37,124 nucleotides of DNA from Escherichia coli (GTDB lineage Bacteria > Pseudomonadota > Gammaproteobacteria > Enterobacterales > Enterobacteriaceae): NCBI RefSeq assembly GCF_003334385.1, contig NZ_QOWN01000044.1; one strand, written 5' to 3'. Below the pieces are notes generated by a model. The model worked only from the letters and a program-made list of their open reading frames with translations. It did not search any database and was not told the DNA's origin. Shown piece after piece: positions 4,541 through 37,124 of this stretch (its first letter is position 1; each line of letters opens with the position of its first letter). The position numbers and the translations under genes are program-made.

Positions 4541-6526
4541 ATGAAAACCGTTAGGGAGTCCACAACGTTGTACAACTTTCTCGGATCGCACAATCCATAC
4601 TGGCGGTTGACGGAAAGCAGCGATGTTTTGCGCTTTTCTACCACCGAAACCACAGAACCTGATCGTACATTGCAGTTATCTGCCGAACAGGCTGCTCGCA
4701 TCAGGGAAATGACGGTCATCACCTCCAGCCTGATGATGAGTCTGACCGTCGATGAAAGCGATCTTTCTGTGCATCTGGTAGGACGAAAAATCAATAAACG
4801 GGAATGGGCTGGCAACGCGTCTGCATGGCATGACACACCGGCGGTTGCTCGTGATTTATCACACGGGCTTTCCTTTGCTGAGCAGGTAGTTTCTGAAGCA
4901 CATTCCGCAATAGTGATTCTCGACAGCCGGGGAAATATCCAACGCTTCAATCGGTTATGTGAAGATTACACAGGGTTGAAAGAACACGACGTCATTGGGC
5001 AAAGCGTGTTTAAACTGTTTATGAGCCGTCGTGAAGCTGCGGCATCCAGGCGCAATAACCGTGTATTTTTTCGAAGCGGCAATGCATATGAAGTCGAACT
5101 GTGGATACCAACATGTAAAGGCCAGCGGCTGTTTCTGTTTCGCAATAAATTTGTCCACAGCGGTAGTGGCAAAAACGAGATTTTTTTAATCTGTTCCGGC
5201 ACCGACATTACCGAAGAGCGCCGCGCTCAGGAGCGACTGCGTATTCTGGCAAATACCGACAGTATCACCGGACTGCCGAATCGTAACGCAATGCAGGATT
5301 TAATCGATCACGCTATTAATCATGCAGATAACAATAAAGTTGGGGTTGTGTATCTTGATTTGGATAATTTCAAAAAGGTCAACGACGCCTATGGGCATTT
5401 GTTTGGTGACCAGTTATTACGCGACGTGTCATTGGCTATTTTAAGCTGTCTCGAACATGACCAGGTGTTGGCGCGTCCAGGTGGGGATGAGTTTCTGGTA
5501 CTGGCATCCAACACCTCACAAAGCGCGCTGGAAGCAATGGCATCACGAATTTTGACCCGCTTACGGCTCCCCTTTCGCATTGGTTTAATTGAAGTTTATA
5601 CCAGCTGTTCAGTAGGTATTGCACTCTCTCCCGAACATGGTTCAGACAGCACGGCTATTATTCGTCACGCCGACACAGCAATGTACACAGCGAAGGAAGG
5701 CGGACGAGGACAATTTTGCGTTTTTACCCCAGAAATGAATCAACGGGTATTTGAATATCTCTGGCTGGATACCAACTTGCGTAAAGCACTGGAAAACGAT
5801 CAGTTGGTTATTCACTATCAACCGAAAATCACCTGGCGTGGCGAAGTGCGCAGTCTGGAAGCACTAGTACGTTGGCAGTCACCTGAACGTGGGTTGATTC
5901 CACCGTTGGACTTCATTTCCTACGCCGAAGAGTCAGGGCTAATTGTGCCTTTAGGCCGTTGGGTGATTCTCGATGTCGTACGCCAGGTGGCAAAGTGGCG
6001 GGATAAAGGCATAAACCTGCGAGTGGCGGTAAATATTTCTGCACGTCAGCTCGCCGATCAAACCATTTTCACCGCCCTGAAACAGGTTCTCCAGGAACTC
6101 AATTTTGAATACTGCCCTATAGATGTTGAACTGACAGAGAGTTGTCTGATTGAGAATGATGAACTGGCACTGTCTGTTATTCAACAATTTAGCCAACTAG
6201 GTGCGCAAGTGCATCTGGATGATTTTGGTACCGGCTACTCTTCACTTTCGCAACTGGCGCGCTTTCCGATCGATGCCATCAAACTTGACCAGGTTTTTGT
6301 TCGAGATATTCACAAACAACCTGTCTCGCAGTCACTGGTCCGGGCGATCGTCGCTGTGGCCCAGGCATTGAATCTTCAGGTGATCGCCGAAGGTGTAGAG
6401 AGTGCAAAGGAAGATGCTTTTTTAACCAAGAACGGGATCAATGAGCGGCAAGGATTTTTGTTTGCCAAACCGATGCCCGCCGTCGCCTTCGAACGCTGGT
6501 ATAAACGCTATCTGAAGCGCGCATAA
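4541..6526 (+). CDS. pdeR: Cyclic-di-GMP phosphodiesterase PdeR (GGDEF-EAL protein, formerly YciR/Gmr)
   Basis: 661 aa ORF with PAS-like region, GGDEF motif intact (ARPGGDEFLVLA) and EAL motif intact (SLEALVRW). Confidence 0.93.
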   Translation: MKTVRESTTLYNFLGSHNPYWRLTESSDVLRFSTTETTEPDRTLQLSAEQAARIREMTVITSSLMMSLTVDESDLSVHLVGRKINKREWAGNASAWHDTPAVARDLSHGLSFAEQVVSEAHSAIVILDSRGNIQRFNRLCEDYTGLKEHDVIGQSVFKLFMSRREAAASRRNNRVFFRSGNAYEVELWIPTCKGQRLFLFRNKFVHSGSGKNEIFLICSGTDITEERRAQERLRILANTDSITGLPNRNAMQDLIDHAINHADNNKVGVVYLDLDNFKKVNDAYGHLFGDQLLRDVSLAILSCLEHDQVLARPGGDEFLVLASNTSQSALEAMASRILTRLRLPFRIGLIEVYTSCSVGIALSPEHGSDSTAIIRHADTAMYTAKEGGRGQFCVFTPEMNQRVFEYLWLDTNLRKALENDQLVIHYQPKITWRGEVRSLEALVRWQSPERGLIPPLDFISYAEESGLIVPLGRWVILDVVRQVAKWRDKGINLRVAVNISARQLADQTIFTALKQVLQELNFEYCPIDVELTESCLIENDELALSVIQQFSQLGAQVHLDDFGTGYSSLSQLARFPIDAIKLDQVFVRDIHKQPVSQSLVRAIVAVAQALNLQVIAEGVESAKEDAFLTKNGINERQGFLFAKPMPAVAFERWYKRYLKRA

Positions 6527-15452: not shown

Positions 15453-15615
15453 AGCTCCTCCTTAATGACAGGGTTGCGAAGCCCTGATTCTCTTCAGGGT
15501 GAATATTAAAGATAACACAAACATCGCGTAACGATTTGATAACAACCCAAATTGATAAAAGAGGAGAAACCTTGTGGCAAAGCAAATGACAACCCCGCCG
15601 CAGCGGGGTCAAGGA

Positions 15616-15696
15616 TCAGTGAGTAATGATCCAGAGGAGTTCGGCCCAGAAGAGCATCGACAGAGAAAACGCGCCCATCCAGGACCAATATTTCAT
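15616..15696 (-). CDS. Candidate small hydrophobic protein upstream of acnA (26 aa, MKYWSWMGAFSLSMLFWAELLWIITH)
   Basis: ATG-initiated 26-codon ORF on the acnA strand in the acnA leader region. Predicted single transmembrane helix. Below the 60-aa track cutoff; may be a real small protein or a chance ORF. Confidence 0.3.
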   Translation of the reverse strand: MKYWSWMGAFSLSMLFWAELLWIITH

Positions 15697-15824
15697 ATTT
15701 GTGTTGATCATAGGCTACACCCTTAACGGTTATTATTTTGTGTTGAGATAACTCAAGCTGTTATTGCTGCGGTGTATTAAAAGCCCTTTAATTCATTAAA
15801 AATGGGTAATAAGAATGATGATAA

Positions 15825-28200: not shown

Positions 28201-28245
28201 ATGAAAGCAATTTTCGTACTGAAAGGTTGGTGGCGCACTTCCTGA
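28201..28245 (+). CDS. trpL: trp operon leader peptide
   Basis: 14-codon [17 protein letters not shown] with tandem Trp codons at 28228-28233; classical attenuation leader. Confidence 0.95.
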
Positions 28246-28287
28246 AACGGGCAGTGTATTCACCATGCGTAAAGCAATCAGATACCC

Positions 28288-28315
28288 AGCCCGCCTAATG
28301 AGCGGGCTTTTTTTT
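28288..28315 (+). terminator. trp attenuator (3:4 terminator hairpin plus U-tract)
   Basis: AGCCCGCC-taat-GAGCGGGCT followed by TTTTTTTT, upstream of trpE. Confidence 0.93.
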
Positions 28316-34900: not shown

Positions 34901-35247
34901 AACTTTCTTTAATGAAGCCGGAAAAATCCTAAATTCATTTAATATTTATCTTTTTACCGTTTCGCTTACCCCGGTCGAACGTCAACTTACGTCATTTTTC
35001 CGCCCAACAGTAATATAATCAAACAAATTAATCCCGCAACATAACACCAGTAAAATCAATAATTTTCTCTAAGTCACTTATTCCTCAGGTAATTGTTAAT
35101 ATATCCAGAATGTTCCTCAAAATATATTTTCCCTCTATCTTCTCGTTGCGCTTAATTTGACTAATTCTCATTAGCGACTAATTTTAATGAGTGTCGACAC
35201 ACAACACTCATATTAATGAAACAATGCAACGCAACGGGAGAAATAAC

Positions 35248-35427
35248 ATGGCCGAACATCGTGGTGGTTCAGGAAATTTCGCCGAAGACCGTGAGAAGGC
35301 ATCCGACGCAGGCCGTAAAGGCGGTCAGCATAGCGGCGGTAATTTTAAAAATGATCCGCAACGCGCATCTGAAGCGGGTAAAAAAGGCGGTCAACAAAGC
35401 GGTGGTAATAAATCAGGCAAATCCTGA
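35248..35427 (+). CDS. yciG: KGG-repeat general stress protein YciG
   Basis: 59 aa from the ATG at 35248 (MAEHRGGSGNFAEDREKASDAGRKGGQHSGGNF...), Gly/Lys-rich with an internal repeat. The track ORF 35191..35427 starts 19 codons upstream. Confidence 0.85.
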   Translation: MAEHRGGSGNFAEDREKASDAGRKGGQHSGGNFKNDPQRASEAGKKGGQQSGGNKSGKS

Positions 35428-35512
35428 TTCACCGTTAATTATTAATATCAGCTGATAAAGATAATTGCATCTGCGGGCCGTATGGCTCGCAGTGATTTCA
35501 CTGGAGAAAAAT

Positions 35513-36013
35513 ATGAATATGAAGACCATTGAAGATGTATTTATTCACCTGCTTTCAGATACCTACAGCGCAGAAAAACAATTAACCCGGGCACTGGCAA
35601 AACTCGCAAGAGCAACATCAAATGAAAAATTAAGTCAGGCTTTTCATGCGCACCTCGAGGAAACTCATGGACAGATTGAACGTATTGATCAAGTTGTGGA
35701 GTCCGAATCGAACCTGAAAATTAAGCGCATGAAATGTGTGGCAATGGAAGGTCTTATTGAAGAAGCTAATGAGGTCATCGAAAGTACCGAGAAAAACGAA
35801 GTGCGTGATGCCGCACTGATTGCCGCAGCACAGAAAGTCGAGCATTATGAGATTGCCAGTTACGGGACATTAGCGACGCTGGCTGAACAATTAGGTTACC
35901 GTAAAGCAGCGAAGCTTCTGAAAGAAACCCTGGAAGAAGAAAAGGCCACCGACATCAAACTGACTGATCTGGCCATTAATAACGTAAATAAGAAAGCCGA
36001 AAATAAAGCCTGA
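35513..36013 (+). CDS. yciF: Ferritin-like DUF892 protein YciF
   Basis: 166 aa from the ATG at 35513 (MNMKTIEDVFIHLLSDTYSAEKQ...), preceded by GGAGAA. The track ORF starts 16 codons upstream. Confidence 0.9.
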   Translation: MNMKTIEDVFIHLLSDTYSAEKQLTRALAKLARATSNEKLSQAFHAHLEETHGQIERIDQVVESESNLKIKRMKCVAMEGLIEEANEVIESTEKNEVRDAALIAAAQKVEHYEIASYGTLATLAEQLGYRKAAKLLKETLEEEKATDIKLTDLAINNVNKKAENKA

Positions 36014-36058
36014 AATATGAATTTTAACTTTTAGTCATTTTATAAAGAGGACATTTTC

Positions 36059-36565
36059 ATGAATCGTATTGAACATTATCATGACTGGTTACGTGACGCC
36101 CACGCAATGGAAAAGCAAGCCGAATCTATGCTTGAATCCATGGCCAGCCGTATAGATAATTATCCTGAACTACGCGCTCGTATTGAACAACATCTTAGTG
36201 AAACCAAAAACCAGATTGTTCAACTGGAAACTATTCTTGATCGTAATGACATTTCACGTTCAGTCATTAAAGATTCCATGAGTAAAATGGCTGCGCTTGG
36301 GCAGTCAATCGGTGGTATATTCCCTTCTGATGAAATAGTCAAAGGCTCTATTAGCGGATATGTCTTCGAGCAATTTGAAATCGCCTGTTACACCTCACTA
36401 TTAGCAGCAGCAAAAAATGCCGGTGATACAGCTTCAATTCCAACCATCGAAGCGATTTTAAATGAGGAAAAGCAAATGGCCGACTGGCTGATTCAGAATA
36501 TTCCGCAAACAACTGAGAAATTTTTAATTCGCTCTGAAACTGATGGCGTAGAAGCGAAGAAATAA
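36059..36565 (+). CDS. yciE: Ferritin-like DUF892 protein YciE
   Basis: 168 aa; paralogous in fold to YciF. AAGAGGA upstream of the ATG. Confidence 0.9.
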   Translation: MNRIEHYHDWLRDAHAMEKQAESMLESMASRIDNYPELRARIEQHLSETKNQIVQLETILDRNDISRSVIKDSMSKMAALGQSIGGIFPSDEIVKGSISGYVFEQFEIACYTSLLAAAKNAGDTASIPTIEAILNEEKQMADWLIQNIPQTTEKFLIRSETDGVEAKK

Positions 36566-36589
36566 TACCCTTTATACCATGTCCTTATT

Positions 36590-36618
36590 GACCCCGTATA
36601 TTACGGGGTCGTTTTTGT
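36590..36618. terminator. Bidirectional terminator between yciE and the ompW remnant
   Basis: GACCCCGTA-tat-TACGGGGTC followed by GTTTTTGTG, between the two convergent stop codons. Confidence 0.7.
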
Positions 36619-36624
36619 GCGGAA

Positions 36625-36741
36625 TTAAAAACGATATCCTGCTGAGAACATAAACACCCACGGATCGAGGCGTACGCTATCGTGTTGCTGTGCACCGCCC
36701 AGCTTATAATTGGCGGTGGTATCGATATCCATGTACCACAC
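36625..36741 (-). pseudogene. ompW: 3'-terminal fragment of outer membrane protein W gene (last ~38 codons only)
   Basis: Minus-strand frame encodes ...VWYMDIDTTANYKLGGAQQHDSVRLDPWVFMFSAGYRF-stop, matching the OmpW C-terminus as I remember it. Upstream of codon V the frame diverges (HIFYNLP instead of DWLVNMS), hits a TAA within 12 codons, and the DNA becomes AT-rich and non-coding. Confidence 0.6.
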
Positions 36742-36838
36742 TGGTAGATTATAAAAAATGTGATAAACAGCTATTTATAAAAGGAAAAACAAACTTTTAT
36801 GGTGATTTTTCATACCGTTTTTCTGTGTTTTTAACTGA

Positions 36839-37066
36839 TTGATTTTGTTAAAGTCTTTTTTTGTTTTGCAGAGGCTTATCCCCCCTTATAGTCATTCCAT
36901 AACTAACGGATATGACCATGTGGACGTGATTGTCAGAACCACCAGCAATGATGGACTCACCATTTTAAGAGTTGTAAATAAAGAATCCGCGCACGAATTT
37001 GTACAGGAAACGCTGCAGGAAGCCTGGGAAACCGCTGAACTGCTTTATCCAATAACGCGATCATAA
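36839..37066 (+). CDS. Hypothetical ORF in the non-ompW DNA beyond the truncation point
   Basis: 75-codon open frame with no in-frame ATG; candidate starts are TTG 36839 or GTG 36920, neither with a good Shine-Dalgarno. Product (...VDVIVRTTSNDGLTILRVVNKESAHEFVQETLQEAWETAELLYPITRS) is not one I recognise. May be non-coding. Confidence 0.2.
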   Translation: MILLKSFFVLQRLIPPYSHSITNGYDHVDVIVRTTSNDGLTILRVVNKESAHEFVQETLQEAWETAELLYPITRS

Positions 37067-37124
37067 TCACGGCAATAACATATTTTTTATGACATTATCC
37101 GTCATGTATGACATAACAACTATC

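Follow-up and report, generated by a model that had tools for sequence, protein, structure and literature searches.

In the window, that is, the whole stretch of 37,124 nucleotides of Escherichia coli DNA analyzed here, an open reading frame (ORF) of 75 codons lies close to the right end, beyond a junction where the sequence ceases to be that of the chromosome. The locus raises the question of whether this frame is a gene brought in by the inserted DNA, a frame that is open by chance, or what is left of a gene that was once complete.

The open reading frame and its signals

The ORF in question is as follows.

36839–37066, plus strand: ORF with a TTG start and 75 codons, from the listing of ORFs with their translations

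Its translation, MILLKSFFVLQRLIPPYSHSITNGYDHVDVIVRTTSNDGLTILRVVNKESAHEFVQETLQEAWETAELLYPITRS, contains the peptide EFVQETLQEAWETAELLY that was quoted in the original prediction, where the frame was described as having neither an ATG nor a convincing ribosome-binding site. The ORF listing and an inspection of the start sites agree with this description: no in-frame ATG is present within 36839–37066, and no purine-rich Shine-Dalgarno (SD) sequence was found 5′ of TTG 36839, GTG 36920, or GTG 36926. If counted from the in-frame GTG at 36920, the product would be 48 aa long, with eight acidic (D+E) and four basic (K+R) residues. A promoter scan gave a single sigma-70-like match (36865–36892, TTTGCA-16-TATAGT), which is weak and lies just 5′ of GTG 36920, with 2.3 such matches expected by chance. 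The frame is also the longest ORF of the phage DNA in the window (36744–37124) and is directed away from the junction. Its length was rejected as coding evidence: when 36744–37124 was shuffled 5000 times with preservation of dinucleotides, an ORF of at least 75 aa appeared in 6.6% of the shuffles, and one of at least 48 aa in 50%. The coding ancestry of the ORF is therefore deduced from homology, as described below, and not from length. Furthermore, an Rfam search of 36400–37124 returned no match at E-values up to 1, so that there is no support for a structured RNA instead of a protein.

The window enters a prophage inserted in ompW

The chromosomal side of the junction consists of the following elements.

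36589–36611, no strand assigned: bidirectional terminator between the convergent yciE and ompW, a strong GC-rich hairpin with T-runs (terminator scan)
36625–36743, minus strand: 3′ end of ompW, the last 39 codons and the stop codon, identical to K-12 MG1655; the chromosomal copy of the att repeat
36716–36743, no strand assigned: 28-bp identity among native ompW, the window, and a phage- or prophage-borne ompW-like copy beside int in strain 2013C-3181 (three-way alignment)
36744–36905, no strand assigned: prophage end, an AT-rich P arm (one half of attR) unrelated to dinI, beginning where the window diverges from K-12

The last 2 kb of the window carry yciG, yciF, and yciE on the plus strand (35191–36565), which are E. 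coli chromosomal genes. Further upstream, two Rfam models are matched at the gathering score, namely the enterobacterial sRNA STnc180 (15582–15784, minus strand, 198 bits) and the trp operon leader (28222–28315, plus strand, 93 bits), which fit an ordinary chromosomal segment of E. coli. The hairpin at 36589–36611 looks like a terminator shared by yciE and ompW, which would restrict read-through of yciGFE transcription into the prophage end. In a three-way alignment, the window follows the ompW/yciE DNA of K-12 MG1655 through 36743 and is unrelated to it from 36744 onward; the foreign segment is therefore real, and is 381 bp long in the window. The original prediction that the frame lies in inserted foreign DNA was thus right, the insertion being a prophage in ompW. 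In PGAP annotation, the equivalent stretch of ompW is labeled “OmpW family, missing N-terminus.”

The prophage is lambda-like, of the P-EibA/PPompW type, and is inserted in the 3′ part of ompW; the window enters it at its tail-fiber/accessory-gene end and contains only its last ~380 bp. Positions 36745–37124 are 99.2% identical to the right end of P-EibA from ECOR-9 (AF151091), and 39 complete E. coli genomes, including many STEC, have the same junction at 98–99.7% identity. The genes that come next in these sister genomes, outside the window, encode an EaaA-type S6 autotransporter and Eib/YadA-like proteins. For the lambda-like PPompW prophages, a 121-bp att repeat located in ompW has been described (Nakamura et al., 2021, PMC8112680). 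When the window is compared with PPompW/P-EibA (PMC8112680; AF151091), its ompW 3′ fragment matches the 121-bp att and nothing notable differs. The junction has what defines an attR: ompW is interrupted in its 3′ part, the ompW 3′ segment adjoins phage DNA, and the DNA beyond is continuous with known prophage sequence and genes. The 28-bp sequence GTGGTATCGATATCCATGTACCACACTG is the only identity shared by native ompW, the window, and the 2013C-3181 copy. To judge from this alignment, it is likely to be the strand-exchange (core) region, where the crossover would have taken place.

One further frame in this region is an ORF of 50 aa with a GTG start (36690–36842, plus strand), which runs antisense through the ompW fragment and spans the chromosome/prophage junction. 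This frame is unsupported by homology and presumably open by chance.

The 3′ part of the frame is derived from a dinI-like gene

RecA filaments are bound by DinI, a small protein of the SOS response. Although no family had been recognized for the peptide in the original prediction, profile searches assign it to DinI. The Pfam DinI model (PF06183) matches the 75-aa ORF with an i-E-value of 1.4e-4 and 22.5 bits, residues 20–66 being aligned with model positions 15–59 of 63, and PHROG 189, “RecA filament binding protein DinI,” matches with an E-value of 1.9e-8 at profile positions 100–144 of 151. The NCBIfam DinI model gives a weak and partial match (positions 38–75 of 81). All 33 database relatives are DinI or DinI-like proteins, mostly of 81–82 aa. 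A PDB sequence search with the 75-aa ORF as query found no match up to E=10. The related segment and the features of its 3′ end are the following.

36911–37055, plus strand: dinI-like remnant, equivalent to codons 35–82 and the stop codon of an intact 82-aa gene
around 37038–37040, plus strand: 2-bp deletion, GA[AG]AC to GAAC, which shifts the frame of the last codons (alignments)
37053–37055, plus strand: original TAA of the dinI-like gene, out of frame in the window copy (alignment with P-EibC and 2013C-3181; end of the PGAP pseudogene)
37064–37066, plus strand: TAA stop codon used by the frameshifted ORF of the window

The remnant thus makes up codons 25–72 of the ORF and corresponds to 60% of a prophage DinI-like gene, counted from its 3′ end. 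The prophage P-EibC (AF151674), which uses another att site, has an intact but unannotated 82-aa dinI-like gene at the equivalent position (L004, 1751–1999). On its 5′ side, this gene has CTGTACATAACCACAG, in agreement with the pattern of a LexA box, CTGT-N8-ACAG, followed by AGGAGG-N7-ATG, and its product can be aligned with E. coli DinI (PDB 1GHH/7YWA) over residues 1–81 with an E-value of 3.4e-11. The DNA of the window at 36911–37124 is 90% identical to that of P-EibC, and the alignment runs codon for codon. In both DNA and protein alignments, homology to the intact genes starts only at ~36904–36911, corresponding to codon 34/35, where the residues read ..KRYDDVDV.. versus ..NGYDHVDV... Intact prophage genes of this kind (P-EibC and the RefSeq “DinI-like family protein” cluster P0015/P0018) are likewise the last gene before att and are convergent with an eaa autotransporter gene. 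They are complete with a LexA-box-like site, AGGAGG, and ATG, whereas the copy in the window begins abruptly at codon ~34, where a different att arm adjoins it.

A model of the intact paralogue by AF2, of moderate confidence (pLDDT 70), places β1 at residues 2–8, α1 at 19–34, β2 at 38–46, β3 at 49–56, and α2 at 59–80. With this model as a guide, the remnant retains β2, β3, and the acidic C-terminal helix, while β1 and α1 are absent. The profile match to DinI is significant, yet the complete β1-α1-β2-β3-α2 domain of ~80 aa is not there. When compared with E. coli DinI itself (1GHH, 7YWA; PF06183), residues 25–~70 align with β2-β3-α2, including the acidic helix with its L-Q-E-x-W-E-x-A pattern, but residues 1–34, the LexA-regulated promoter, the SD sequence, the ATG, and the terminal DDWF have no counterpart. 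Of the intact paralogues, the remnant has kept neither codons 1–34 with the ATG nor the ribosome-binding site, the LexA box, and the promoter, and no LexA-box-like site (CTGT-N8-ACAG with at most one mismatch) exists between 23669 and 37124. A single-sequence AF2 model of the 75-aa product is poor (pLDDT 54.8, with residues 1–25 below 50) and deserves little weight.

The 3′ end of the gene has also been altered. The two base pairs at ~37038–37040 are absent from the window and P-EibA and are retained in P-EibC and 2013C-3181. Because of this deletion, the original TAA is out of frame in the window copy, and the conserved ending ...ETADDWFIQ* is changed to ...ETAELLYPITRS (DDWFIQ* to ELLYPITRS*), with termination at 37064–37066. 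The core of the acidic helix, QETLQEAWETA, is kept, and the A-D-D-W-F motif that ends it is lost. Even in the non-deleted copies of the ompW type, the conserved Trp of DDWF is replaced by Cys. At two of the 25 columns without variation in 17 intact phage paralogues, the remnant has a different residue (D57N and D77E). It has six synonymous and six non-synonymous codon differences from P-EibC, and most of this divergence probably predates the truncation and arose between alleles that were once intact.

Control of prophage dinI homologues by LexA is established in enterobacteria (PMC3121763), and the Gifsy prophages of Salmonella have LexA-regulated operons of dinI, antirepressor, and irsA (Lemire et al., 2011, PMC3121763). 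Unlike Gifsy dinI, which is under a LexA box, the window copy has no such site. The gene from which the remnant was derived was probably, in its ancestral state, a LexA-regulated prophage dinI homologue of this kind. No convincing ORF for a Gifsy-style antirepressor or irsA was found between the remnant and the eaaA stop codon.

The 5′ part of the frame is attachment-site DNA

The remaining part of the ORF, upstream of the dinI-like segment, contains the following.

36839–36910, plus strand: first 24 codons of the ORF, att-arm DNA that is not DinI-related and has no homology to the intact genes
36856–36862, plus strand: homopolymer run of seven T residues, six in a draft-genome lineage (alignment of L005–L007 with the window)
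36863–36873, plus strand: candidate arm-type binding site for integrase, GTTTTGCAGAG, inside the N-terminal extension of the ORF

The arm at 36744–36905 is present as one copy in each of 42 complete E. coli genomes, invariably after the ompW fragment, and has no similarity to the region 5′ of intact dinI-like genes. A stop-free run of the size seen in the arm is equalled or exceeded in 61% of shuffles. The N-terminal extension of the ORF is therefore attachment-site arm DNA that is open by chance. The original suggestion of a first cargo gene or a chance frame was therefore partly correct on each side: the 3′ two-thirds of the frame are DNA of a phage accessory gene, of the DinI family, and the 5′ third (36839–36910) is att-arm DNA open by chance, but the gene is not intact, since it has neither a start region nor an undisturbed end, owing to the 2-bp frameshift.

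The 11-mer GTTTTGCAGAG occurs four times in a 12.4-kb locus of 2013C-3181 (L002), where 0.30 copies are expected and none of 200 shuffles reaches four. All four copies are confined to 300 bp between the int stop codon and the dinI remnant, three in tandem beside int (5827–5861 of L002) and one in the P arm (6119–6129, equivalent to 36863–36873 of the window). In lambda, the arm-type integrase sites are distributed in a comparable way, with P′1–P′3 on one side and P1/P2 in the P arm. The repeats are candidates for integrase arm-type sites arranged as in lambda, to which the integrase would bind by analogy.

In 2013C-3181, the att arm is located just past the integrase gene and an ompW-like segment. 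There, the prophage end is preceded by xis and int of another prophage and a divergent ompW-like segment with a 15-bp insertion, and not by yciE. This arrangement (5824–6166 of L002) can be read as an attP-like junction rebuilt in tandem or nested (prophage-in-prophage) elements, for which it is the expected pattern.

Variation and annotation among genomes

The 5′ truncation is common to all 42 complete genomes with the att arm, as far as the matches extend. Frame-disrupting indels in related sequences, which the original prediction had named as evidence against a gene, do occur: the 2-bp indel divides the complete genomes into 22 with the deletion of the window and 17 without it (2 bp longer), a 1-bp indel affects the T-run, and an insertion sequence interrupts the remnant in one strain. 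PGAP annotates nothing in the 22 deleted genomes and a partial DinI-like pseudogene in the 17 others. For example, “DinI-like family protein; incomplete; missing N-terminus” of 2013C-3181 (MJ73_RS06295, NZ_CP027312) begins exactly at the equivalent of 36911. This pseudogene has the same locus, breakpoint, and prophage lineage as the window copy and is 98% identical to it, and its allele differs in retaining the two base pairs and the original stop codon. In strain G1/2, the remnant is split at ~36992 by ISEc12, an IS21-family element with a frameshifted istA (L012, ~2747 onward). G6/7 and G8 have the att arm and, in the search tables, lack a full-length match to the remnant, which suggests that they carry the same IS interruption as G1/2, the one strain among the three whose locus was inspected.

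In a lineage that is abundant among draft genomes, the run at 36856–36862 consists of T6 versus T7, and the upstream frame reads MIDFVKVFF... versus MILLKSFF.... This frame change forces a CTG start on the 73-aa protein annotated there, P0001, for which the index of the assembly collection gives 415 blocks. The record is seen in several hundred draft assemblies as a 73-aa “DinI-like family protein” with an apparent CTG start and an N-terminus made of att-arm sequence (2501–2722 of L005–L007, equivalent to 36835–37055 of the window). P0001 probably represents a pseudogene annotated in error.

From 36911 to the tail, the frame is intact in 39 of 39 full-length copies, a figure without statistical weight because the copies are 98–100% identical. 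The check on frame conservation proposed earlier revealed the disrupting indels. At 98–100% identity, and with most of the differences following alleles of the intact paralogues, the comparison of synonymous with non-synonymous changes has no power for the time after truncation.

Origin of the remnant

Taken together, the ORF at 36839–37066 is very probably the dead remnant of a prophage dinI-like gene, as judged from the homology, the breakpoint, the missing signals, and the lesions seen in the population. It is almost certainly non-functional, and the missing signals suggest that it would not be expressed. Against this reading can be set the annotation of P0001 as a protein, the weak promoter-like match, and the six synonymous and six non-synonymous differences from P-EibC, which are compatible with purifying selection in the past. 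As to its history, an ompW-specific int/att module may have been joined to an eib/eaa accessory region by illegitimate recombination or deletion. The left breakpoint would have fallen inside the terminal dinI-like gene, so that the DNA to the left of codon ~34 was replaced by the P arm of att. A breakpoint closer to the core would remove att-arm DNA needed for integration and excision; this may be why the junction is situated ~160 bp from the core. The β2-β3-α2 part would thereby have been left without signals for transcription and translation; the 24 codons of att arm in front of it happen to be open, which gives a frame of 75 codons. The orphaned 3′ fragment would then have decayed neutrally, as in the 2-bp deletion, the IS insertion, and the shifted upstream frame.

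Alternative explanations

One alternative is that a truncated DinI is still expressed, from GTG 36920 as 48 aa or from TTG 36839 as 75 aa, and docks on RecA free of LexA control. The acidic C-terminal helix, which is largely retained, is the RecA-interacting and DNA-mimicking part of DinI according to Voloshin et al. (2001), as cited in PMC3121763, but with β1 and α1, ~40% of what is already a very small fold is gone. Each of the 39 full-length copies has the frame open, whereas the C-terminal frameshift is polymorphic at about 1:1, the gene fragment is knocked out by the IS in G1/2, and the upstream frame is not conserved. Some records list P0001 and P0005 as proteins, while PGAP in complete genomes either ignores the locus or calls it a pseudogene. 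The promoter-like match 5′ of GTG 36920 has to be set against the lack of SD and ATG and a number of such matches below the chance expectation. On this balance, an expressed truncated DinI is unlikely.

A more specific proposal, that low-level translation from GTG 36920 or an upstream TTG/CTG, supported by read-through or a fortuitous promoter in the att arm, yields an acidic-helix peptide engaging RecA filaments, is quite improbable. If it were true, a regulator induced by SOS would have become, through integration of the prophage, one that modulates RecA and prophage induction constitutively and independently of LexA. This would hold above all for the 73-aa allele without the frameshift, which many STEC draft genomes share.

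It is very improbable that the whole ORF arose by pure chance in AT-rich phage DNA with no coding ancestry. The non-significant length (6.6%), the absence of start signals, and the first 24 codons of non-coding att arm are all in line with such an origin; against it stand the significant DinI profile matches and the codon-for-codon DNA alignment, at 90% identity, with intact genes at the same position in sister prophages. A chance origin can be regarded as refuted by this homology for 36911–37055 and as valid only for 36839–36910.

An intact and novel first cargo gene of the inserted element is scarcely credible: the frame is indeed the first ORF inward from the junction, and in sister genomes it is followed by the virulence-associated eaaA autotransporter gene and eib, but its family is known, it is truncated in comparison with every full-length relative, it is frameshifted at the 3′ end and a pseudogene in RefSeq, and none of the database relatives is a full-length homologue with the same 75-aa architecture in an unrelated context.

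The dead dinI-like remnant, to return to the preferred reading, is an already annotated and ordinary kind of object, namely a 5′-truncated and, in the window, also 3′-frameshifted dinI-like pseudogene situated against the attR arm of an ompW prophage that is already known, and it implies no new biology. In annotation, its proper label is a 5′-truncated, frameshifted dinI-like pseudogene by attR, and not a hypothetical protein or a “DinI-like family protein” CDS. The remnant marks the module boundary at which an ompW-specific int/att cassette is grafted onto the eib/eaa region of STEC-associated prophages. This boundary can usefully serve as a landmark when prophage ends are defined or PPompW-like elements are typed.

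Related sequences in other elements

The 2-bp-deleted tail of the ELLYPITRS type is also seen in rare full-length dinI-like genes (P0003 and P0004; L008, 272–526, and L009, 210–464), all on low-coverage metagenome contigs, and in a draft O81:NM genome, where the surrounding SNPs are P-EibC-like (L010, 2501–2647, equivalent to 37038–37066 of the window). All intact paralogues listed for complete genomes are of the longer, +2 length. The deleted tail is probably not a genuine alternative C-terminus, as no full-length allele of this kind is among these listed paralogues and its full-length occurrences are confined to the metagenome contigs. Full-length genes with this tail more likely come from chimeric assembly or from gene conversion between paralogous prophage copies. 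For the metagenome contigs and the O81 draft together, gene conversion, recurrent deletion, and chimeric assembly are possible sources.

In P-EibC, a segment located ~250 bp from the intact dinI-like gene (L004, 1393–1503) has the translation MIYIGLPQWSHPKWV..., which looks YecE-like. The yecE gene is a known integration site of Stx phages, and a YecE-like fragment at this place would fit integration of P-EibC at yecE.
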